DNA from: Minisyncoccota bacterium
GTDB lineage: Bacteria > Patescibacteriota > Minisyncoccia > Phycocordibacterales > WO2-35-19
Direction: 5' to 3'
NCBI GenBank assembly: GCA_041664625.1
Contig: JBAYKK010000002.1
Location: forward strand, 7,755-71,754
DNA length: 64,000 nucleotides
The notes under the pieces: model-generated
The model's input: the letters and a program-made list of their open reading frames with translations, nothing else
Told to the model about the DNA's origin: nothing
The model's database searches: none
Translations under genes and position numbers: made by a program
Shown here: positions 7,047-61,688 of the stretch, one piece after another
Layout: every line of letters starts with the position of its first letter
How positions within the stretch are numbered: position 1 is the stretch's first letter

Positions 7047-7135
7047 ATCGGATGGCCAAAGCTTTAGCGAAGGCATCCAGTGGCTTATATTCTTACATAA
7101 GCCAGAGCTTTTATCAAAGGATTTCTAACATTTGA

Positions 7136-7201
7136 CCCAGTAGTGAATTTTGGCATTAGTTTCACTATGCACTTTGTGCCATGCCAAAATCTACTACTGG
7201 G
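7136..7201. repeat. MITE-like palindromic element, copy G (arms CCAGTAGTGAATTTTGGCAT / ATGCCAAAATCTACTACTGG)
   Basis: Shares conserved terminal inverted repeats with 6 other copies; flanked by TTGAC on both sides. Confidence 0.7.
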
Positions 7202-7236
7202 TTTGACTATTTTGTTTGTATTTGGTAGCTTTAGAG

Positions 7237-14657: not shown

Positions 14658-16119
14658 TTTAAAAATCACATTTTTTGGTGGGGCCGGTTCTACTACTGGG
14701 GCTAACATAATGCTTGAAGTTGGAAGTAATCCCACTTCGCCAAAGCTTCGCGGGACAAGAATTTTGGTGGATTGCGGACTTTTGCAAGGTGCTCGATTCG
14801 CTGAAGATAAAAATTTTGAAAATTTCAAATATAACCCAGCTGAAATTGATTTTCTTTTGATTACTCATGCTCATATGGATCATATAGGCAAAGTGCCCAA
14901 ATTGGTGCGTGATGGTTTCAAAGGCAAAATAATATCTACGGTGGAAACTATGGAACTGGCTCGACCGATGCTCGTAGATGCTCTGAAAGTGATGCAAGCT
15001 CGTCACCCCAACCAAACTCTTTTTGAAGAAGCTGATATAAACAAATCTTTTGCTTTGTGGGAAGGCCGAAGTTATGAAGAGAAAATAAATCTTTTTGAAA
15101 ATTGTAGTTTATTTATGCAAGATGCTGGGCATATATTGGGTTCGGCTATTTGCAATGTCACTTGTGGAGTGGGGGAAGAATCAAAGACCATAGCCTTCAC
15201 TGGGGACTTGGGTAATTCGCCTTCGCCTATTTTGCCAGATACCGAGACCCCAAAAGGAGTTGATTATTTGGTTATGGAGAGTGTCTATGGAGATAGGAAT
15301 CATGAAAGCAAAGACGAAAGAAGACAAAAATTAAAACAAGCTATTTTGAATGGCCAAGAAAGAGGGGGTACTATAGTGATCCCGGCTTTTTCCATAGAGC
15401 GGACTCAGGTTTTGCTTTATGAGTTGAATAATATGATTGAAGATCAAGAGATCCCCAAGGTGCCAGTTTTTTTGGACTCTCCTTTAGCTCTCAAAGTAAC
15501 TGATATTTATAAAAAATATCAAAAAGATTTCAAACCATCAGTCCAACAAGAAATACAATCGGGCGATGATATTTTTGATTTCCCTGGTTTACAAATAGTG
15601 AGGAATACCAGAGAGTCAGAAGAAATAGAAAAATTGGCCGGGCCTAAAATAATTTTGGCCGGTTCAGGTATGTCTGAAGGGGGGAGAGTGGTCAGTCATG
15701 AAGCTCGATTTTTGCCCGATCCTACGGCTACTATTATTTTAGTCGGTTATCAGTCAGTCGGTTCATTGGGTAGAGCGATTCAAGATGGAGTCAAAGAGGT
15801 TTTCATAGAGACTGATGGTGACAAGAGCAACGGTAAAGAAAAAGTAAAAGTCAGAGCCACTATTGAAAACATAACTGGTTATTCATCGCACAAAGATTCG
15901 GAGCATTTGCTGGAGTTCGTCGAAAAAGTAAATGACTCGACCTCACCCCCAACCCCTCTCCTTGCGAAGGAGAGGGGAGAAGGAAAAAAAGGATTGAAGA
16001 GGGTTTTCGTTATAATGGGCGAACCCAAATCATCCCTTTTCCTCACTCAACGCATCCGCGATTATCTCGATATTGACGCAGTTTATCCAGAAGAAAATAA
16101 AGAATACGAATTAAAATAA
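14650..16119 (+). CDS. metallo-beta-lactamase fold ribonuclease, beta-CASP family (RNase J-like)
   Basis: HAHMDH motif 2, D...H motifs, beta-CASP motif GYSSHKDSEHL; contains an in-frame hairpin-repeat insertion (TSPPTPLLAKERGEGKKG). Confidence 0.8.
   Translation: MNNLKITFFGGAGSTTGANIMLEVGSNPTSPKLRGTRILVDCGLLQGARFAEDKNFENFKYNPAEIDFLLITHAHMDHIGKVPKLVRDGFKGKIISTVETMELARPMLVDALKVMQARHPNQTLFEEADINKSFALWEGRSYEEKINLFENCSLFMQDAGHILGSAICNVTCGVGEESKTIAFTGDLGNSPSPILPDTETPKGVDYLVMESVYGDRNHESKDERRQKLKQAILNGQERGGTIVIPAFSIERTQVLLYELNNMIEDQEIPKVPVFLDSPLALKVTDIYKKYQKDFKPSVQQEIQSGDDIFDFPGLQIVRNTRESEEIEKLAGPKIILAGSGMSEGGRVVSHEARFLPDPTATIILVGYQSVGSLGRAIQDGVKEVFIETDGDKSNGKEKVKVRATIENITGYSSHKDSEHLLEFVEKVNDSTSPPTPLLAKERGEGKKGLKRVFVIMGEPKSSLFLTQRIRDYLDIDAVYPEENKEYELK
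15940..15977 (+). repeat. R-family hairpin repeat copy R1, inside the beta-CASP CDS, in frame
   Basis: acctcacccccaacccctctc-cttgcgaag-gagagggg matches intergenic family consensus. Confidence 0.7.
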
Positions 16120-16174
16120 CCTCACCCCGTTTTCCTTACGGAAAACTGCCCCTCTCCTAGACGCAGGGGAGGGG
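16118..16174 (+). repeat. R-family hairpin repeat copy R2 (double-hairpin variant)
   Basis: aacctcacccc + gttttccttacggaaaac + cccctctc-ctagacgcag-gggagggg. Confidence 0.7.
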
Positions 16175-16194
16175 AAAAATAAAAAATAAAACAG

Positions 16195-18517: not shown

Positions 18518-18574
18518 AACCTCACCCCACTTTCCTTCGGAAAGTTGCCCCTCTCTTATATTAAGAGAGGGGAG
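18518..18574 (+). repeat. R-family hairpin repeat copy R3 (double-hairpin variant)
   Basis: aacctcacccc + actttccttcggaaagt + cccctctc-ttatattaa-gagagggg. Confidence 0.7.
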
Positions 18575-19193: not shown

Positions 19194-20255
19194 TTAGTTT
19201 TCTAATAATTTGAGTACTTCAGAATTGATGAGGATGGTAGAAACATAAATACGGGCATTGGTTTCGGAAGCGCTAGGGTAGTGCTTCATAACTTCTTTAA
19301 CTTCGTTTTCCAAAATTTCTTTGTTTGGCTCTAGTTTTTCTGCTTCAGCGATTTTATTAAATATGAGTTGGATTTTGGCCTTTTTTTCAGAACTGTCCTT
19401 CAAATCTTTTTTCAAGTCATCTTCACTCTTTTTGATCTGGGTCAAATAATCGGCAAATTTACCACCCGCTCTTTCTATTTCATCTTTCATTTGGGCCAAA
19501 GATTTTTCGGTCTCGCTCTCTACTAATATATTAGGCAATTCGATATCGGTTTTTTTGACCAAAGCTTCCATGATTTGAGCTCTAGTTTTTTCTATGTTTC
19601 TGGCCTTCTTTTCGGCTACTATGTTTTCTTTTACTTTTTCTTTGAGTTCAGCCAAACTTTTAAAATTACCAGCTACTTTGGCGAATTCATCATCCAAAGC
19701 TGGTAAATCCTCATCTTTGATTTCTGGGTGGTTGTGGCCCGTCTCATCTTTATGAGCTTCATGCCAATCAAAATGCGCCTTGTTCCTTCGGATTTGCAAA
19801 AGTACATCTTCTAATTCTTTGTCTGTTGCCTCAGTTTTTTCTTCCTTGCTTGCTACTTGCTGCTTGCTACTTGCTGCTATTTTCTTATAGTCTGGCAATG
19901 TGAATTCTGGCATCACAGCAAAAACTACTTTGAATTCAACTGGATTGCCCAAGGCCAATTTGGTGATAGAAACTTTAGGTTGGCCGATTATGTCCAATTT
20001 GGCCTCGCTTATGATTTTAGGGAAGTGTTCTTTGAGTAATATATCAGCCGCTTCTCCCAATATTTCTCCTTCGTCTATTTTTTCAATTACTACGTTTTCT
20101 GGTATATGGCCTTTTCTAAAACCGGGGACGTCTAGAGATACACCAAACATATTTATGGCTTTTTTGCGGGCGGATACCAAAAAATCAGCGGGTATGGATA
20201 CTTCCATTTCCACTTCTGATTTTGGTAATTTTTTTATTTTGAATTCGTACGACAT
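19194..20255 (-). CDS. tig: trigger factor
   Basis: N-terminal ribosome-binding domain, PPIase region GFRKGHIP; 353 aa (short form). Confidence 0.8.
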
Positions 20256-20320
20256 CCCGTAGTAGATTTTGGCTATGTTATCACGATTCCGTAGGAATTA
20301 TAGCCAAAATTCACTACGGG
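20256..20320. repeat. MITE-like palindromic element, copy A, abutting tig start codon
   Basis: cccgtagtagattttggc...gccaaaattcactacggg. Confidence 0.7.
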
Positions 20321-22647: not shown

Positions 22648-22685
22648 TAACTCACCCCCAACCCCTCTCTTACATTAAGAGAGGG
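22648..22685 (+). repeat. R-family hairpin repeat copy R4
   Basis: aactcacccccaacccctctc-ttacattaa-gagagggg. Confidence 0.7.
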
Positions 22686-22783
22686 GAAAACGAATAAATA
22701 AGAAAGAAAAAATCCGCGGGTAATGCGGAGTGACAATCTTTCAGTATTAAAACCATTATATACCCAAGAGGGTAAACAGTCAA

Positions 22784-22852
22784 CCCCGTAGTAGATTTTG
22801 GCATTGTGGCAAAGCCACCGCACGAAGTGCAATGCCAAAATTCACTACGGGG
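22784..22852. repeat. MITE-like palindromic element, copy B (flanked by GTCAA direct repeat)
   Basis: ccccgtagtagattttggcattg...caatgccaaaattcactacgggg. Confidence 0.7.
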
Positions 22853-22916
22853 TCAAGCCTGCTTTATCTACAGGTGCGCTTTGTTATTTAAATAACCTTA
22901 CCGTATAATTTGAAAC

Positions 22917-28838: not shown

Positions 28839-28984
28839 TTATCAACAGCGGGTCTTGCGCTTATTTGGGGTTTGTGATATACTTAATTATGTGAGTGTGG
28901 GAAAGCAATTTTCAGCACAAATGAATGTCTGCGAAAGCGCCACCCTCGGGTGGCATTTTCGTTGGTTTTTGGCTATAAATTTGA

Positions 28985-29051
28985 CCCGGTAGTAGATTTT
29001 GATATCGCACTTAAAGTGCCGGCAAGGCCAATATCAAAATTCACTACTGGG
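28985..29051. repeat. MITE-like palindromic element, copy C (flanked by TTGAC direct repeats)
   Basis: cccggtagtagattttgatatc...gatatcaaaattcactactggg. Confidence 0.7.
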
Positions 29052-29079
29052 TTGACTTTATTTTTTGAGGGAGTATAAT
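29052..29079 (+). promoter_or_regulatory. strong sigma70-like promoter TTGACT-N16-TATAAT; -35 box lies in the MITE target-site duplication
   Basis: Hexamers read directly. Confidence 0.5.
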
Positions 29080-29099
29080 TAAAGCACAGTTTAAAAGAT

Positions 29100-29120
29100 C
29101 CCCCGAAAGGGGTTTTTTCT
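29100..29120 (+). terminator. hairpin ccccgaaagggg + TTTTTT shortly after promoter (attenuator-like)
   Basis: Read directly. Confidence 0.5.
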
Positions 29121-35948: not shown

Positions 35949-37631
35949 ATGAAAATTCAAGAAAAAATTAAAAAATGGATAAAAGAAACTTTGGAGATAG
36001 AAGGGGATTTTGTGTTGGCTCATCCCAAAGATTTGAAAAATGGTGATTATTCTTTCTTTGCTACGTCGAAGCTTTCAGCGAAAGCGAGTACTCCAGAAGA
36101 AGCGGTAAATATTTTAAATGAAAATAAAATTCCAGAAATAGAAAAAATAGAAGTAGTGGGCAAGTTTATAAATTTTTATTTATCCAAAGGTTTTTTTGTC
36201 GATTCGGTTAAAGAAATTTTAGATAAAAAAGAAAATTATGGCAAAAATAATTTGCTTGAGGGTCAAAAAATCTTGATTGAGCATACTCAACCCAATCCGT
36301 TCAAAGAATTTCATATTGGGCATTTGATGAACAATGCAGTAGGAGAATCAGTTTTTAGAATTTTGGATGCAAACGGAGCAGAGATTACGGCCGTTGGTTA
36401 TCATGGGGATGTGGGGCTTCACGTAGCCAAAACTATTTGGGGCAAAATGCAAAAACCGGAACTCTCTTGGGGAGAGGCTTATGCCTATGGTTCTCAAAAT
36501 TTTGACGATCATAAAATAGAGATAACCGAAATAAACAAAAAAGTTTACGAAAAATCAGATCAGGAAATAAATAAATTATATGAAAATGGTAAAAAAGATT
36601 GTTTAGATTATTTTGAATCGCTTTATAAAAGATTAGACAGTCATTTTGATTTTCATTTTTTTGAAAGTGAAACTGGGGAAGTAGGGCAGGCTTTGGTAAT
36701 GCAAAATGTGGGTAAAGTTTTTGAAAATGGTGAGGGCGGGGCGGTGATTTTCAAAGGTGAAAATTTTCAGCCCCAGACTCATACTCGAGTCTTCATAAAT
36801 TCAGAAGGTATTCCCACTTATGAAGCCAAAGAAGTAGGTTTGGCTAAAATTAAAAAGGAAAAATATGATTATGATAAATCCATTACTGTCACCGCTAACG
36901 AACAGGATGCATTTTTTGATGTGACTGAGGTGGCGATCGGTGAAGTGAGGCCAGAACTCAAAGGCAAACTCAAACATCTTTCACATGGTATGTTGCGATT
37001 ACCGAGTGGTAAAATGTCTAGTCGCACTGGAGAGGTGATTACTGCGGAAAATTTGATTGAGCAGGTGAAAGAAAAAGTTTTTGAAAAAATAAAAGATCGG
37101 GAATTTGATGAGAATGAAAAACAAGAGATTGCGGAGATAGTGGCGGTCGGTGCCATTAAGTATTCCGTCTTAAGGCAAGCTATCGGGGGAGACATTATTT
37201 TTGATTTTGATAAATCAATTTCATTCGAAGGGGATTCGGGCCCTTATCTGCAGTATGCTTGTGTGCGCGCTAATTCGGTTTTGGAAAAAGCTAAAGCAGC
37301 CAAAATGATTTCTTCTGTCGGCTTCGCTGATTTTCCTTCGGAAAATACGACTCTAGAAATCATTTTGGCTGCTTCCGCGACTGAATTAGAAAAAATATTG
37401 TATCGATTTGAAGAAGTAGTAGAGCGAGCAGGGCAGGAGTATGCTCCACATCATATCGTGACTTACTTGACCGAGCTCGCCAGTGTTTTCAATAGTTTTT
37501 ATGCTAATAATAAAATTATAGACGGGAGTGACACGACTTCACCTTATAAAATTGCTCTGACTACCGCAGTAGCTCATACTCTCAGATCCGGTCTCCATAT
37601 TTTGGGTATCAAAGTGCCGGAGAAAATGTGA
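35949..37631 (+). CDS. argS: arginine--tRNA ligase
   Basis: Class I HIGH (FHIGHLMN), C-terminal DALR anticodon-binding region ending ...VPEKM. Confidence 0.9.
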   Translation: MKIQEKIKKWIKETLEIEGDFVLAHPKDLKNGDYSFFATSKLSAKASTPEEAVNILNENKIPEIEKIEVVGKFINFYLSKGFFVDSVKEILDKKENYGKNNLLEGQKILIEHTQPNPFKEFHIGHLMNNAVGESVFRILDANGAEITAVGYHGDVGLHVAKTIWGKMQKPELSWGEAYAYGSQNFDDHKIEITEINKKVYEKSDQEINKLYENGKKDCLDYFESLYKRLDSHFDFHFFESETGEVGQALVMQNVGKVFENGEGGAVIFKGENFQPQTHTRVFINSEGIPTYEAKEVGLAKIKKEKYDYDKSITVTANEQDAFFDVTEVAIGEVRPELKGKLKHLSHGMLRLPSGKMSSRTGEVITAENLIEQVKEKVFEKIKDREFDENEKQEIAEIVAVGAIKYSVLRQAIGGDIIFDFDKSISFEGDSGPYLQYACVRANSVLEKAKAAKMISSVGFADFPSENTTLEIILAASATELEKILYRFEEVVERAGQEYAPHHIVTYLTELASVFNSFYANNKIIDGSDTTSPYKIALTTAVAHTLRSGLHILGIKVPEKM

Positions 37632-37780
37632 TTTTGCCACCAGCAAAATCATCCTGAGCTAAACAAATAATTTTGATTATTTTTTAGCGAAGGGTAAATT
37701 TTGCCACCAGCAAAATCATCCTGAGCTAAACAAATAATTTTGATTATTTTTTAGCGAAGGGTAAATTTTGCCACCAGCAA
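37631..37780 (+). repeat. perfect tandem direct repeat, 67-bp unit x2.2 (attttgccaccagcaaaatcatcctgagctaaacaaataattttgattattttttagcgaagggtaa)
   Basis: Units 37631-37697, 37698-37764 identical; partial third 37765-37780; between argS stop and next ATG. Confidence 0.9.
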
Positions 37781-38054: not shown

Positions 38055-38065
38055 TCTCATTTGAT

Positions 38066-38132
38066 CCAGTAGTAGATTTTGACATTACACTTCATGCTGT
38101 GGCTTTGCCACGATGTCAAAATTCACTACTGG
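38066..38132. repeat. MITE-like palindromic element, copy D (TTGAT / TTGAC flanks)
   Basis: ccagtagtagattttgacat...atgtcaaaattcactactgg. Confidence 0.7.
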
Positions 38133-38133
38133 A

Positions 38134-38161
38134 TTGACAATAAAACGTTATTTGGTAGTAT
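38134..38161 (+). promoter_or_regulatory. promoter TTGACA-N16-(TGg)TAGTAT upstream of rpsS; -35 adjacent to MITE end
   Basis: Read directly. Confidence 0.4.
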
Positions 38162-38200
38162 ATTACCTATCCGCCCCAGGCGGATTAAATTTGTAATAAT

Positions 38201-40037: not shown

Positions 40038-40075
40038 CACCCCCCAACCCCCCTCTTACATTAAGAGGGGGAGAG
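40037..40075 (+). repeat. R-family hairpin repeat copy R6 (between rplP and rpmC)
   Basis: acaccccccaacccccctct-tacattaa-gagggggagag. Confidence 0.7.
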
Positions 40076-40948: not shown

Positions 40949-40989
40949 ACACCCCCCAACCCCCCTCTTACATTAAGAGGGGGGAGGGA
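40949..40989 (+). repeat. R-family hairpin repeat copy R7 (between rplN and rplX)
   Basis: acaccccccaacccccctct-tacattaa-gaggggggaggg. Confidence 0.7.
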
Positions 40990-41238: not shown

Positions 41239-41280
41239 AAACCTCACCCCCAGCCCCTCTCCTAGATGCAGGAGAGGGGA
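41239..41280 (+). repeat. R-family hairpin repeat copy R8 (between rplX and rplE)
   Basis: aacctcacccccagcccctctc-ctagatgcag-gagagggg. Confidence 0.7.
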
Positions 41281-41921: not shown

Positions 41922-41954
41922 ACACACCCAACCCCCTCTTATTTTAAGAGGGGG
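41922..41954 (+). repeat. R-family hairpin repeat copy R9
   Basis: acacacccaaccccctct-tatttta-agaggggg. Confidence 0.65.
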
Positions 41955-41967
41955 CACTGGAACACAA

Positions 41968-47677: not shown

Positions 47678-47704
47678 AACTCTAAATAAAGTTTTTAAAT
47701 ATGT

Positions 47705-47754
47705 AGTCCGAATTTGGCTAAAATGTCATTTGACATTTTAGCCAAATTCGGACT
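47705..47754. repeat. perfect 50-bp palindrome (24-bp arms agtccgaatttggctaaaatgtca / tgacattttagccaaattcggact, 2-nt centre)
   Basis: Read directly; covers the start codon region of the downstream ORF. Confidence 0.85.
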
Positions 47755-48211
47755 TGAAAACAAGATTACAAGCCAACAAATTTGTGTTGAAAGTAATAAT
47801 TTAGAAATAGATACCAGTGATCTTTTGGAAAACATAAAAATATTGTTACAATATATTATATCACAAAAATCTAAATTAAGAAATAAATATATGGGATTAT
47901 TTGAATGGGGAGAAAAAAGATTTGCTCGTGGAATAGCAAAAGCTATGATACGAAGTTATAAATTATATAAAAAAACTTATCCAAATTTAAGTGAATTTGA
48001 ATTAATAAAAAATACATTGTCTGATCGTCCTGGTGATCCGGCCAAAAAATTACTCAATGATATTGAAGATGAAAATTTTTACCAAGATATTGGTGGTAAT
48101 TTTTTTGAAATCACGTATGTACTGATTCGTCTCGAATATATTGAATATATGCACGGAACATTAGATGAAGAAGATAAAAAACGAACGCAGTTTTTAGGAA
48201 TGTTCTCTTAG
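47723..48211 (+). CDS. hypothetical protein (track start 47714 is TTG; ATG 47723 preferred)
   Basis: ORF-track frame; MSFDILAKFGL... Confidence 0.5.
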   Translation: MSFDILAKFGLENKITSQQICVESNNLEIDTSDLLENIKILLQYIISQKSKLRNKYMGLFEWGEKRFARGIAKAMIRSYKLYKKTYPNLSEFELIKNTLSDRPGDPAKKLLNDIEDENFYQDIGGNFFEITYVLIRLEYIEYMHGTLDEEDKKRTQFLGMFS

Positions 48212-52370: not shown

Positions 52371-52394
52371 TATGTTATAATAATACATCATGAG

Positions 52395-52528
52395 TCCCGT
52401 AGTAGAAAATGGCATGGGAAAGTTTTTATTGTTTAGATTAAGAATGTTATTATTAATGAATAGATTATTATGTGTTTTAACTATAAAAATGGCACTTTCC
52501 AAAAACAATGCCATTTTTCACTAACGGG
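52395..52528. repeat. MITE-like palindromic element, copy E (expanded ~134 bp; arms cccgtagtagaaaatggcat / atgccatttttcactaacggg), flanked by ATGAGT direct repeat
   Basis: Coordinates +/-1; right arm ends at pilM start codon. Confidence 0.65.
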
Positions 52529-53632
52529 ATGAGTTTCATTTCTGACATTTTTGAAAAGAAAAATACGAGCGCTATTGGTATCGATATTGGCTCTTCTTCT
52601 ATCAAAGTAGTTCAACTTCATAAAAAGGGTGATAAAGCTATACTTGACACTTACGGTGAGCTTTCTTTGGGTCCGTATGGGGGTGTTTCAATCGGCCAAT
52701 CTACCAATTTGCCCACCGAAAAAATAGTGCAAGCGGTCAGAGATCTCTTGGCCGAAAAAGAAGTTGCCATTACTACCAAAGTTTGTGGTTTGGCCATCCC
52801 TTTCAAAGCTTCTCTGCTCTCTATTATAGAAATGCCGGCCATAGGTATGAAAGAGCTCGGTATGATGATACCGATTGAAGCTCGTAAATATATACCGGTG
52901 CCGATATCAGACGTGACCATCGATTGGTCGGTAGTACCCAAATCCGAAGTTGAAGATATCCCTGTTATGAAGGGTGAAAATAAAGTCAAAACAGTCGATA
53001 TACTTTTGGTGGCTATCCATAATAATATTATCAATCAATATCGGGATGTTGTTTCCAAGGCTGGTTTAGAGGCCAAATTTTTTGAAATCGAAGTTTTCAG
53101 TTCTATGAGAGCTATTTTGGAAGGGGTGCAAGGGGCGGTCATGATTTTTGATATGGGGGCGTCAACTACCAAATTGTATATGATAGATAGAGGTTTGGTA
53201 CATCATTCTCACACTATAAATCGAGGCTCTCAAGACATAACCGCCAATATCGCGAGATCTCTCAATATTTCAACTGAAGAAGCTGAGGTAATAAAAAGAT
53301 CTGCTGGTTCCGGCAAAACATCAGAGGGCTTCGACCTTTCAGAATCGGTGGCCAATGTGGCAGACAGTATATTTTCTGAGGCCAATAGATTTTTGTTTGA
53401 ATTTCAGAAAAAAAGAAATCAAAATATCAAATCAGTATTTTTGACTGGCGGAGGTTCGGCTCTGCGGGGTTTCAGAGATTTGGCAGCAGCCAATTTCAAA
53501 GTTGAAGTGATATCCAGTAATCCATTTGAAAAAGTAGAAGTACCAGCATTTTTGGAAAATATCCTCAAAGAAACTGGCCCAGAATTCACCGTCGCAGTCG
53601 GCGCTGCTCTGCGTTGTCTCCAAGAATTATAA
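52529..53632 (+). CDS. pilM: type IV pilus assembly protein PilM
   Basis: Actin-like ATPase fold pattern IGIDIGSSSIKVV; start at ATG 52529 (MSFISDIF), in frame with the track ORF. Confidence 0.8.
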   Translation: MSFISDIFEKKNTSAIGIDIGSSSIKVVQLHKKGDKAILDTYGELSLGPYGGVSIGQSTNLPTEKIVQAVRDLLAEKEVAITTKVCGLAIPFKASLLSIIEMPAIGMKELGMMIPIEARKYIPVPISDVTIDWSVVPKSEVEDIPVMKGENKVKTVDILLVAIHNNIINQYRDVVSKAGLEAKFFEIEVFSSMRAILEGVQGAVMIFDMGASTTKLYMIDRGLVHHSHTINRGSQDITANIARSLNISTEEAEVIKRSAGSGKTSEGFDLSESVANVADSIFSEANRFLFEFQKKRNQNIKSVFLTGGGSALRGFRDLAAANFKVEVISSNPFEKVEVPAFLENILKETGPEFTVAVGAALRCLQEL

Positions 53633-60736: not shown

Positions 60737-60756
60737 TATTATTTAAATAATGCAAT

Positions 60757-60827
60757 CCCGTAGTGAATTTTGACTATAATTCCTGCGGAATCAGTTAAAA
60801 ATTAACATAGTCAAAATCTACTACGGG
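60757..60827. repeat. MITE-like palindromic element, copy F, flanked by 7-bp direct repeat ATGCAAT (second copy is the pilD start)
   Basis: cccgtagtgaattttgactat...atagtcaaaatctactacggg; TSD at 60750-60756 and 60828-60834. Confidence 0.75.
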
Positions 60828-61688
60828 ATGCAATATATTTTTGGGGTACTTATATTTTTTGTCGGTACTGCTTTGGGGAGTTTTATCGCCGTGATTGCCG
60901 ATCGCTACAACACAGGGCTACCCTGGACCAAAGGCCGGTCAATTTGTTTTTCTTGTGATACTGAACTTAAAAATAAAGATCTTTTCCCTTTGTTTTCTTT
61001 TTTGTGGCTCAAGGGCAAATGCCGATATTGCCAAAGCAAAATTCCTAGAGAGACTTTTTTTGTGGAAATTTTGATGGGCGCTCTCACAGTTTTAGCTGTT
61101 TTTAAATCTGGTTTTTTGGGTTTTGATTTTTCTTCCTTAATTCTTAATTCATACTTCATAATTCAATTTTTACTTTTAACTGCTATTTTTGGAAATATCC
61201 TTCTGATTTCTATTTATGATCTTAAGCATTTCATTATTCCCGACGTTTTTTTAATTTGTTTCTTTGTTTTTGCTTTTATTCTTAATTCCTACTTCATAAT
61301 TCATAATTCACTTTCTTATTTTTTCATAATTCAAAATCTGCTTTCTGGTCTTGTTTTAACTTTACCGTTTCTTCTAATATTTTTGATTTCACGAGGGGCT
61401 TGGTTTGGATTTGGGGACGTGAAGTATATTGCGGTTTTGGGGTTTTTCCTTGGTCTGGTGCAGGGTTTGTCAGCGGTAGTTTTGGCTTTTTGGATTGGAG
61501 CGGTTTTTGCTGTTTTGGCACTGGTTTTTAAAAAAATTACACCCTATATAAATTTGCCTCTGTTTAAAAATAATCTTACAATTAAGTCTGAAATACCATT
61601 TGGACCTTTCCTTTCTTTGGGGATAATAATAAGTTTTTATTTGAGTCTAGATTTATTTTACATAAATGAAATATTTAAATTTTTCTAA
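60828..61688 (+). CDS. pilD: prepilin peptidase PilD (A24 family)
   Basis: N-terminal CxxC...CxxC zinc motif, multiple TM, conserved GFGDVK Asp region. Confidence 0.85.
   Translation: MQYIFGVLIFFVGTALGSFIAVIADRYNTGLPWTKGRSICFSCDTELKNKDLFPLFSFLWLKGKCRYCQSKIPRETFFVEILMGALTVLAVFKSGFLGFDFSSLILNSYFIIQFLLLTAIFGNILLISIYDLKHFIIPDVFLICFFVFAFILNSYFIIHNSLSYFFIIQNLLSGLVLTLPFLLIFLISRGAWFGFGDVKYIAVLGFFLGLVQGLSAVVLAFWIGAVFAVLALVFKKITPYINLPLFKNNLTIKSEIPFGPFLSLGIIISFYLSLDLFYINEIFKFF

Follow-up and report, generated by a model that had tools for sequence, protein, structure and literature searches.

Patescibacteria have tiny streamlined genomes with little repeated or mobile DNA. The window analysed here (the whole stretch of 64 kb from a Minisyncoccota bacterium) raises the question of how one small palindrome came to be scattered along such a genome, beside genes such as nusA, rpsN and pilM, and whether it is a mobile element, regulatory DNA of the host or a structured RNA. 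An earlier note, made from the sequence alone, had favoured palindromes of ~67-71 bp inserted by a DDE-type transposase acting in trans.

Copies in the window

When at most two mismatches were allowed, the window contained 20 matches to the arm motif GTAGTAGATTTTG, against 2.1 expected from shuffled sequences, and 12 of these 20 matches were the two arms of each of six canonical copies. With a covariance model these six scored 65-75 bits and the next-best match in the window 17.5 bits, and the same scan revealed no decayed copies there. Together with a long variant the total is seven copies in 64 kb, all of which fold as single-stranded DNA far better than their shuffles (z from -4.4 to -9.8). 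The seven positions listed in the earlier note were thus recovered and its picture of a dispersed family of small palindromes was borne out, none of them with coding capacity, but the canonical size range is 65-71 bp and the seventh copy, although real, is a long variant of 133 bp. The copies are the following:

7136..7201, minus strand: canonical copy (71.5 bits), between a tRNA-Ser gene and the promoter of rpsN (S14)
20256..20320, plus strand: canonical copy (65.5 bits), between two minus-strand genes, one for a 104-aa protein and the other for trigger factor
22784..22852, plus strand: canonical copy (75.1 bits), between the divergent nusA and a gene for a 1250-aa protein
28985..29051, plus strand: canonical copy, between the terminator after rpsJ (S10) and the secE-nusG promoter
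38065..38133 (also given as 38066-38132), plus strand: canonical copy, upstream of the rpsS (S19) operon
52396..52528, plus strand: long variant (133 bp, AT-rich interior, 3' box CACTAAC), between the divergent start codons of a gene for a 230-aa protein (minus) and pilM (plus)
60757..60827, minus strand: canonical copy (72.9 bits) and site of the original finding, with the pilin terminator on one side and the start codon of the prepilin peptidase gene on the other

The interiors of the 22784 and 38066 copies are 88% identical, one of them as the reverse complement (in inverted order), and those of the 20256 and 60757 copies are 72% identical, which speaks for spread of the element along this genome; an interior similar to that of the 20256 copy was also found in a copy from another locus (L102). 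The GC skew of the window is positive throughout and the copies are oriented five plus to two minus, which is uninformative on replication-strand bias.

Anatomy and fold

The elements end in a closing stem of ~4 bp, (A)CCCN...NGGG(T), next to which lies an 8-bp subterminal box that reads GTAGTAGA in one arm and GTAGTGAA in the opposite arm. Because each copy joins a GTAGTAGA end to a GTAGTGAA end, the folded strand contains a fixed 2x2 internal loop (A.C/G.T). Beyond the box there is a covarying stem of ~10 bp and then a variable tip, usually with two mini-hairpins, and nearly all copies adopt a Y-shaped fold. The shared terminal inverted repeats described previously correspond to arms of ~22 nt, (A)CCCN-GTAGTAGA-TTTTGGCAT, in which 95.2% of the stem cells are paired. 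Double changes occur at each of the 13 variable pairs, and covariation scores 0.36 where shuffles give 0.10, a value that none of 500 shuffles brought up to that of the elements. The arms had been described as differing at one position, but they actually differ at two adjacent ones (AG versus GA), which become A.C plus G.T upon folding. The conservation of this asymmetry held: an AG box is joined to a (T)C box in every hairpin-type copy (46, 47 and 2 across the three forms counted), and none of the bona fide copies of this type has two like ends.

The GTAG of the box is paired and lies inside the stem, and the box itself is invariant across the whole bacterial class; its conservation in the loci from the genome collection is partly built in, because these were retrieved by an exact-box pattern, and 20 copies found by other routes still keep the boxes. 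In the 52396 long variant a TTTT/AAAA segment of the stem has been flipped compensatorily to AAAA/TTTT, and the terminal nucleotides of the family vary and can even flip from CCC/GGG to GGG/CCC. Pairing is dominated by Watson-Crick pairs, with 18 G.T against 33 A.C mismatches, and G.U pairs are rare and do not favour one strand, which points to DNA rather than RNA. An intrinsic (Rho-independent) terminator was considered and rejected, as the elements carry no T tract and separate canonical terminators precede the 28985 and 60757 copies.

Target-site duplications

Exact direct repeats of 3-6 nt abut the 4-nt closing stem in 72 of 88 copies, against ~7 expected from random pairing of flanks, and most of them are 4 nt (39 copies) or 5 nt (21 copies) long. 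The longest word shared by the two flanks averages 5.14 nt versus 3.45 nt. Of 60 duplicated words, 54 begin with T and 50 end in A, and the bases immediately beyond are enriched for G and C; this indicates a target with two-fold symmetry, (G)T-N2-3-A(C), which resembles GTYRAC. More than 30 different words are duplicated on both sides. This alignment of flanks, one of the checks suggested earlier, supports the direct repeats as statistically real target-site duplications and shows that insertion takes place by staggered cleavage, with duplication of 4-5 bp (range 3-7) of the target. In the window the duplications are:

7131-7135 and 7202-7206: TTTGA (7136 copy), the right one being the -35 box (TTGACT, 17 nt, TAGCTT)
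22780-22783 and 22853-22856: TCAA (22784 copy)
28981-28984 and 29052-29055: TTGA (28985 copy), the right one being the -35 box (TTGACT, 16 nt, TATAAT)
38061-38064 and 38134-38137: TTGA (38066 copy), the right one being the -35 box (TTGACA, 16 nt, TAGTAT)
52390-52395 and 52529-52534: ATGAGT (52396 copy)
60750-60756 and 60828-60834: ATGCAAT (60757 copy)

The 20256 copy has no convincing duplication (the best is ACA, 3 nt). The repeats first read around these copies are therefore real, and ATGAGT and ATGCAAT stand as given; the words for the 7136, 22784, 28985 and 38066 copies had included a C or G that overlaps the closing stem of the element.

Filled and empty sites

A way to look at mobility is to compare the same site with and without the element. 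The orthologous site of the 60757 copy is empty in a relative (L202), which retains the terminator, the stretch TTTTGTGTTATTATT and a single ATGGAGT, against ATGCAAT, the 71-bp element and ATGCAAT in the window. None of the closest NusG-linked relatives examined by eye (L121-L127) has the element at its secE promoter, which is itself conserved. Eighty relative loci (537 kb) contain 3 elements, against 7 in the 64 kb of the window, only one locus (L168) has a copy at the secE promoter, and element density differs 20-fold between close relatives. An empty site aligning with both flanks of the 28985 copy was not found in the relatives; the promoter side alone aligns, because the upstream synteny differs in them. 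At the tuf promoter the window has no element, and three other loci (L009, L039 and L046) have one.

Two copies lie within coding sequences. In uvrC of one locus (L019) the element is in frame (RI / 24 aa / EAYDVAHISG) and flanked by the duplication TAGA, and in nfo (endonuclease IV) of another (L079) an in-frame element splits the homology to solved structures at the insert. These data support the insertion of copies into both conserved genes, and duplications, filled and empty sites and in-gene copies taken together provide independent support for mobility. That part of the original proposal stands; its attribution to a DDE transposase does not follow in the same way. An autonomous partner sharing the ends of the family was looked for in the window, ~200 fetched loci and plasmids and not found (see below).

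Promoters, start codons and conservation in place

A -35/-10 promoter starts at the first base after the element in 27 of 176 flanks, against 0.4 expected, and the orientation of the core is independent of the side on which the promoter lies (15 versus 12). Besides the three -35 boxes listed above, the left end of the 22784 copy abuts, on the minus strand, a promoter directed at nusA (TTGACT, 17 nt, TATAAT), and the 20256 copy abuts the start codon of tig (CAT, 20253-20255). Three window copies are located between divergent promoters or start codons and would for this reason be transcribed only by read-through or from inside the element. A consensus scan for promoters inside the long variant gave nothing above shuffle level, so promoters within long variants are hypothetical.

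Several copies are conserved in place. The 7136 copy has orthologous copies in three loci (L050, L115 and L059) and the 38066 copy in two (L002 and L052, the outer stems of the latter being 21/22 and 21/22 identical). Conservation between orthologous copies is 95-100% in the outer stems, with ~50% identity in the left flank, and the same S14 and S19 promoters are occupied in several genera, where the promoter itself is less conserved than the outer stems. Taking this together with the absence of decayed copies in the window, an element selected by the host fits at least as well as selfish DNA. Covarying stems, the fixed mismatch loop, conserved outer stems and promoter abutment make clear that these are not ordinary decaying MITEs. 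Fixed orthologous positions of a conserved RNA had been named beforehand as an observation that would speak against transposition, and occupation of the same promoters in different genera goes part of the way; the RNA reading is nonetheless not favoured, and mobility has its independent support.

Distribution in Patescibacteria

The pattern scan of Patescibacteria MAGs detected ~90 hairpin-forming copies, mostly in Parcubacteria lineages, and the fetched Patescibacteria loci contain ~110 copies in all, with mini-elements also present. Homologous long variants lie beside start codons in four loci (L007 and L087, with one copy each, and L063 and L108, with two copies each), and L093 and L139 hold further long variants. 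Adjacent copies are mostly inverted (10 in opposite versus 2 in the same orientation). All 33 pattern matches in viral contigs are without stems and closing pairs, which indicates that the scan is specific; a phage origin was rejected on the same data. The label 'Uncultured Candidatus Saccharibacteria' carried by some of the MAGs is unreliable (L052 is syntenic with the Paceibacterota window, at 68-76% nucleotide identity), and true Saccharibacteria can for this reason not be counted as hosts.

Rfam 15 gave no match at gathering scores, and relaxing to E values of up to 5 gave only tRNAs and spurious hairpins. Literature searches on MITE, palindromic, REP or RAYT elements in Patescibacteria, CPR or Parcubacteria, and with the arm sequence, returned nothing relevant. 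The family is apparently undescribed, in agreement with the first reading of the window, in which no described family had been recognised.

Origin of the family

We consider these palindromes a non-autonomous, hairpin-forming (foldback, MITE-like) family of mobile DNA, widespread in Parcubacteria/Paceibacteria, with a probability of roughly two in three; that is, a new MITE/REP-like family. Four hallmarks of MITEs are present (small non-coding dispersed copies, terminal inverted repeats, a characteristic duplication and presence/absence polymorphism). The enzyme would act in trans and would probably recognise folded DNA (hairpin or cruciform), since conservation lies in the pairing and the mismatch loop and not in most of the stem sequence. 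The promoter boxes TTGAC and TGnTA would match its insertion target and genic insertions would be mostly lethal in tiny genomes, and for both reasons the surviving copies would pile up at -35 boxes, extended -10 boxes or the first codons of near-leaderless genes. At such sites the promoter or start signal disrupted by the insertion would be restored by the duplication. Selection would then retain many copies, perhaps in a structural or insulating role close to promoters, and the long AT-rich variants may supply promoters.

The domain scan detected no transposase among the window ORFs that it covered, as had been stated before, and the search for a full-length insertion sequence with the same terminal repeats, also suggested then, came out negative: neither the window nor ~200 fetched loci nor plasmids contained an autonomous element or a transposase with these ends. 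No unpaired arms in the fetched Patescibacteria loci bound an autonomous element; those considered as candidates were fortuitous intragenic matches (L026, L086) or belonged to the ends of long variants and mini-elements. A 417-aa ORF in L086 was discarded as a transposase candidate (its HTH matches are weak only), and matches to plasmid and insertion-sequence ends were at chance level (E = 7). Further observations count against a MITE-like origin: the duplication length (3-7 nt) is looser than for most DDE transposases, and variable, flipping terminal bases are unusual for transposase-bound termini. A further reading, which we regard as unlikely, is that of a domesticated promoter module used class-wide in Parcubacteria, in which a host or domesticated transposase-like factor would recognise the hairpin with its A.C/G.T loop in folded form and place or keep it exactly at -35/extended -10 boxes, insulating or tuning housekeeping promoters (for example S14, S19, tuf, secE-nusG and nusA), with the AT-rich long variants as portable promoters delivered to start codons.

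A different kind of enzyme would be a Y1 HUH transposase (RAYT or IS200 type) that moves REP/REPIN-like elements as single-stranded hairpins, with the GTAG box and the mismatch loop as strand-specific recognition features. The subterminal box starts with GTAG, a tetranucleotide that REPs conserve at their 5' end; conservation of pairing rather than sequence, the obligatory loop and the inverted arrangement of neighbouring copies also fit. RayT-like Y1_Tnp genes are abundant in Parcubacteria (1215 homologues), one of them (P0183) on a contig from the JGI sample of the window, and in a relative another one forms a polymorphic insertion in the pilin/peptidase spacer where the window has its 60757 copy. 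Yet the RayT genes (L201, L206, L208 and L210) have on their flanks a hairpin of another kind, xTCAAAGG-NNN-CCTTTGAx, of which the window has no copy; the hairpins of a RayT-like gene from the metagenome of the window are likewise different, and the covariance model detected no full GTAGTAG element beside seven RayT loci; the sole relative of the family there is an incomplete arm of a long variant, truncated by the edge of the locus L210, ~1.1 kb from the RayT gene. These data show no RayT link. To our knowledge Y1 HUH insertion (IS200/IS605, REP systems) makes no target-site duplications, and here they are nearly universal and varied in sequence. Palindrome-associated elements derived from IS200/IS605 were rejected, there being one hairpin per element and the many flank words duplicated on both sides. 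We hold single-strand transposition of this kind to be quite improbable.

The elements could also be mainly cis-acting DNA of the host (the site bound by a conserved factor, for example, or a cruciform with an insulating or tuning effect on promoters), the flank repeats being a functional site and not scars of transposition. Copies flush with -35 or extended -10 boxes, promoters shared by several genera, the lack of decay in the window, the mismatch counts and the three copies between divergent promoters or start codons would all be expected. Such a role leaves unexplained the in-frame copies in uvrC and nfo, the 20-fold density difference between close relatives, the same promoters free of the element in most relatives and the dozens of different flank-repeat sequences, and as the main explanation it is very doubtful; it is compatible with the MITE-like reading as a secondary, domesticated role. 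A structured ncRNA or cis-regulatory RNA motif with a Y-shaped three-way junction would account for the strong covariation, the conserved internal loop and the 20256 and 60757 copies, which would sit in 5' leaders just before a start codon, but it is highly improbable given the absence of Rfam matches, the mixed orientation to neighbouring genes, the several copies upstream of both divergent promoters and the scarce, unbiased G.U pairs, and an RNA gene predicts neither flanking duplications nor in-gene insertions nor absence from close relatives.

Significance

A class-wide hairpin that lands non-destructively on promoter boxes, start codons and conserved enzymes would be a new handle on regulatory rearrangement. 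The sequence tag GTAGTAGA ... TTCACTAC offers a way to find promoters and strain-level polymorphisms in metagenomes. The family also poses a biochemical question, namely which enzyme would recognise a folded hairpin with a fixed 2x2 mismatch and yet make 4-5 bp duplications, and annotation pipelines may take into account that inserts of 24-27 residues, for example in UvrC and endonuclease IV, derive from this element.

Comparison with known systems

Integron attC sites are imperfect palindromes of 57-141 nt in which the folded strand and not the sequence is conserved, with extrahelical bases and a variable terminal structure. The family shares with them the imperfect palindrome, the conserved fold, the conserved asymmetry and the variable terminal structure; in contrast, it has no RYYYAAC/GTTRRRY core sites and no context of cassette array or integrase, and it has a strongly conserved 8-bp box and repeats around each copy. 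An attC identity was rejected, since the flanks are direct and not inverted repeats and the copies are isolated beside housekeeping genes. Rickettsia palindromic elements (RPE) are short palindromic repeats found in frame within coding genes and in intergenic regions, and the uvrC and nfo copies are similar in this respect, but the present family is mostly intergenic and promoter-proximal, has clear target duplications, is about half the size of RPE and has no sequence relation to them.

The Correia elements of Neisseria (CREE/NEMIS) are small palindromic repeats without coding capacity that have inverted repeats at their termini and make a short TA target duplication; they are located beside genes, can affect promoters and transcripts and include some copies conserved between species, and no transposase is known for them. 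The likeness extends to all of this general design (small non-coding palindromes, inverted repeats, short duplication, gene-adjacent position, some cross-species conservation and no transposase identified). There is no sequence similarity, however, and the family described here duplicates 4-5 bp of T-N2-3-A instead of TA, and has covarying stems, an obligatory mismatch loop, insertion flush with -35/extended -10 boxes and patescibacterial hosts. With REP/REPIN-RAYT systems it has in common imperfect palindromes with GTAG, selection on hairpin pairing, inverted doublets, long vertical persistence and a RayT-like gene family in the same lineage, and it differs in that GTAG lies inside the stem, in the target duplications and in the unrelated hairpin that flanks the RayT genes of the lineage.

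MITEs derived from DDE elements resemble the family in size, non-coding nature, inverted repeats starting with CC, 4-5 bp duplications of a symmetric target, insertion polymorphism and copy numbers that differ between lineages; 4-5 bp duplications and CC termini are also features of the IS1380 family, which we mention as a lead only. The parent insertion sequence was not found in the window, the ~200 fetched loci or plasmids. What sets the present elements apart from such MITEs is that their arms are kept perfectly complementary by compensatory change and do not decay independently, that their terminal bases vary and that the subterminal box is invariant throughout the class.

Copies in the window and their hairpin structure

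The window belongs to a contig of a Paceibacterota MAG (JGI sample 3300037810), kin to Zambryskibacteria. Six of the copies listed in the earlier note were confirmed at their coordinates; the seventh (52396-52528) is also real but is a long variant of 133 bp rather than an element of 67-71 bp, with an AT-rich interior and a TTTT/AAAA stem segment flipped with compensation. The arm motif has 20 matches in the window (up to two mismatches) against 2.1 expected. In a covariance model scan of the window the six copies scored 65-75 bits and nothing else exceeded 17.5 bits, so that there is no tail of decayed copies. The two arms had been described as differing at a single position, when they actually differ at two adjacent bases (GTAGTAGA versus GTAGTGAA). 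Folded as single-stranded DNA, every window copy forms a long hairpin whose stem holds a 2x2 internal loop and whose tip is Y-shaped (z-scores -4.4 to -9.8). The adjoining genes have housekeeping roles (rpsN, tig, nusA, secE-nusG, rpsS, pilM and the prepilin peptidase gene). The interiors of copies 22784 and 38066 are 88% common, inverted relative to the boxes (the 8-bp subterminal motifs), and those of 20256 and 60757 are 72% common, both likenesses being consistent with copying inside this lineage.

Covariation was assessed on an alignment of 77 copies compared with 500 shuffles. In this alignment 95.2% of stem cells are paired and all 13 variable pairs have changes on both sides; the covariation score was 0.36 versus 0.10 in the shuffles, none of which reached it, and pairing drops to 28-48% when the partner columns are slid along the alignment. 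The closing stem is mostly (A)CCCN/NGGG(T), and the GGG/CCC flip also occurs. Across all the Patescibacteria loci examined, every hairpin-type copy has an AG box at one end and a (T)C box at the other: 46 lie in one strand orientation, 47 in the opposite one, and two are of the AG/C form. No genuine copy has two like ends. Twenty copies found without the exact pattern kept the boxes, 17 of them with the exact 5' box. Non-Watson-Crick stem cells are rare, and since G.T (18) shows no excess over A.C (33) on the oriented strand, the mismatch pattern argues for a palindrome at the DNA level and against an RNA under selection on a single strand.

Subtypes of the element
Mini-elements, ~30-40 nt, in three loci from other genomes (L002, L004, L112)
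Long variants, 125-160 nt, most adjoining a start codon
Adjacent doublets, 10 in opposite and 2 in the same orientation

In another such locus (L094, 2380-2700) a GTAGTAG element is strung together with unrelated palindromic hairpins, e.g., CCCAGCACCAGTT...AACTGGTGCTGGG; the identical GGG-TTTA-CCC junction between each suggests repeated insertion into one target word.

Spread of the family

A scan for GTAGTAGA-N4-G-N25-55-C-N4-TTCACTAC, in which each species was represented by one genome, yielded at least 118 loci, and about 90 of the 121 matches listed fold into this hairpin. With one exception they come from MAGs whose labels name Patescibacteria lineages (Nomura-, Zambryski-, Wolfe-, Yonath-, Niyogi-, Vogel- and Yanofskybacteria, Paceibacterota and one Kazan) or plain "bacterium", the lone exception by label among the matches listed being a Candidatus Humimicrobiaceae (L035). 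The other listed matches, from unrelated phyla, have no stems, and neither did any of 33 viral-contig matches used as negative control. Some "Saccharibacteria" labels are unreliable, since one locus so named (L052) shares synteny with the window, with a nucleotide identity of 68-76%. The earlier remark that the element fits no described family is borne out by Rfam 15, which has no matching family, and by a literature search that returned no description of such an element; the family is thus apparently undescribed so far.

Evidence for transposition

Taking the 4-nt closing stem as the element boundary, exact abutting direct repeats flank 72 of 88 copies versus about 7 expected from random pairing of left with right flanks, so the flanking duplications reported in the earlier note are well beyond chance. 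They measure 3 nt (11 copies), 4 nt (39), 5 nt (21) or 6 nt (one). Of 60 duplicated words, 54 have T as their first base and 50 have A as their last, and the word is preceded by G and followed by C; the target is two-fold symmetric, near GTYRAC, which is what a symmetric complex making a staggered cut should leave.

That the direction of the event is insertion is shown by two in-frame copies inside conserved enzymes. In uvrC (L019, 2211-2278) the element adds 24 residues where the RNase H-like endonuclease domain starts, and the original AGA ATA GAA GCT (R-I-E-A) is split by the element and a TAGA duplication. In endonuclease IV (L079, minus strand, 1615-1691) it adds 27 residues between conserved blocks, an insert that breaks the match to solved structures.

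Empty sites in relatives, a comparison proposed at the outset, were also found. Where the window has ATGCAAT, element, ATGCAAT (copy 60757), the relative L202 lacks the element: it has kept the pilin terminator and the stretch TTTTGTGTTATTATT, with the ATGGAGT start present just once. The secE promoter (TTGACT ... GGGAGTATAAT) is conserved and devoid of the element in each closest relative examined (L121-L127). At the tuf promoter the window has no element, but three other loci do (L009, L039, L046). Eighty loci (537 kb; NusG 77-96% identical) hold 3 elements versus 7 in the 64-kb window.

Orthologous copies and probable retention by selection

The S14 promoter is filled in the window and in L050, L115 and L059, and the S19 promoter in the window, L052 and L002. 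Compared with the closest orthologues (L050 for S14, L052 for S19), the outer 22-nt arms are identical at 21-22 of 22 positions, versus identities of ~50% for the left flank, ~75% for the promoter side and 55-80% for the interior. The arms of L115 match equally well only when flipped, and those of the more distant L059 and L002 at 16-20 of 22-23 positions; in L002 TTTTG/CAAAA has become AGTTG/CAACT, a compensatory change. Orientation varies among the orthologues (L115 and L002 are flipped), so that either the element was inverted where it stood or one hot spot was hit more than once. Palindromes between direct repeats are prone to precise deletion, and the persistence of the element thus suggests a putative benefit.

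Placement at promoters and start codons

In 27 of 176 flanks the first base beyond the element is the start of a -35-like box that has a -10 box at the right spacing, against 0.4 expected from all positions of the same loci. The promoter lies about equally often on either side (15 versus 12), so box orientation bears no relation to transcription. The word next to the element in Nomurabacteria-like genomes is TGCTA, part of an extended -10 box (TGCTATAAT). Four window copies have TTGA on both sides, the outward one forming the -35 box (S14, nusA, secE and S19 promoters), and three window copies directly adjoin a start codon; for 60757 and 52396 the duplicated word appears to include the ATG of a leaderless or near-leaderless gene. 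The simplest account would combine a preference for targets of the T-N2-3-A kind (TTGA, for example) with strong selection against insertions whose damage is not repaired by the duplication.

Just 3' of three promoters there are short G+C-rich hairpins, which may be leader or attenuator structures.

29080-29105, secE, CCCCGAAAGGGG plus a T run, conserved in L122, L123 and L127
7230-7250, S14
38165-38185, S19

Other repeats and genes in the window

A second repeat family consists of a C-rich leader (CACCCCCAACCCC), a hairpin directly after it (CCCCTCTCTTA-loop-TAAGAGAGGGG) and then a purine-rich stretch. Its copies lie 3' of stop codons, several within the ribosomal-protein operon, and one is also present in L121.

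Second repeat family, and further features
15946-15978, 16148-16175, 18548-18573, 22655-22687, second repeat family
40041-40073, 40953-40985, 41247-41280, 41922-41956, second repeat family
37631-37764, perfect tandem duplication of a 67-bp unit, 3' of the arginyl-tRNA synthetase gene, third copy partial
47704-47756, perfect palindrome, ~24-bp stem (AGTCCGAATTTGGCTAAAATGTCA..TGACATTTTAGCCAAATTCGGACT), GT just before; part resembles the element arm (AATTTGGC), without boxes, covariance model only 17.5 bits
45276-46856, minus strand, one 526-aa ORF with LexA DNA-binding domain, S24 peptidase and C-5 cytosine DNA methylase; region common to L115
28284-28757 and 38201 onward, rearranged ribosomal gene order

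S10, with a 60-residue N-terminal extension, is located 3' of tuf and followed by a terminator, and S19 opens its own operon, 3' of ArgRS and an 88-aa protein. L039 and L002 have the usual order, with L3 after S10.

The enzyme and the place of the family among mobile repeats

No transposase domain was found among the window ORFs scanned, in agreement with what had been noticed from the sequence. One candidate mover is a RayT-like Y1 transposase, of a family that is large in Parcubacteria, with 1215 homologues in Parcubacteria-like genomes and one gene on a contig from the JGI sample that also gave the window. A polymorphic insertion of such a gene even occupies the pilin/peptidase spacer, the same that holds copy 60757: the gene of L201 is absent from L202, which encodes an identical prepilin peptidase, and its insertion was accompanied by a ~60-nt duplication of the peptidase gene start. 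However, the RayT genes (217-222 aa; L201, 384-1037; L210, 1201-1869) bear their own, unrelated TCAAAGG-NNN-CCTTTGA hairpins, of which the window has none, and the genes have no full GTAGTAG element beside them. Since HUH Y1 enzymes are not known to make duplications, we consider this mover improbable. CC termini and duplications of 4-5 bp are features of IS1380-type elements, which provides a lead only. The earlier MITE-like reading is supported as to mobility and duplications; a DDE mechanism is unproven.

We rate the GTAGTAG family as a fresh variety of the small palindromic mobile repeats (MITE, REP, Correia, RPE). Unusual for such repeats are its hairpin covariation, the obligatory mismatch loop and the class-wide conservation of the boxes, together with the precise tie to promoter boxes or start codons and the occasional in-frame residence in genes.
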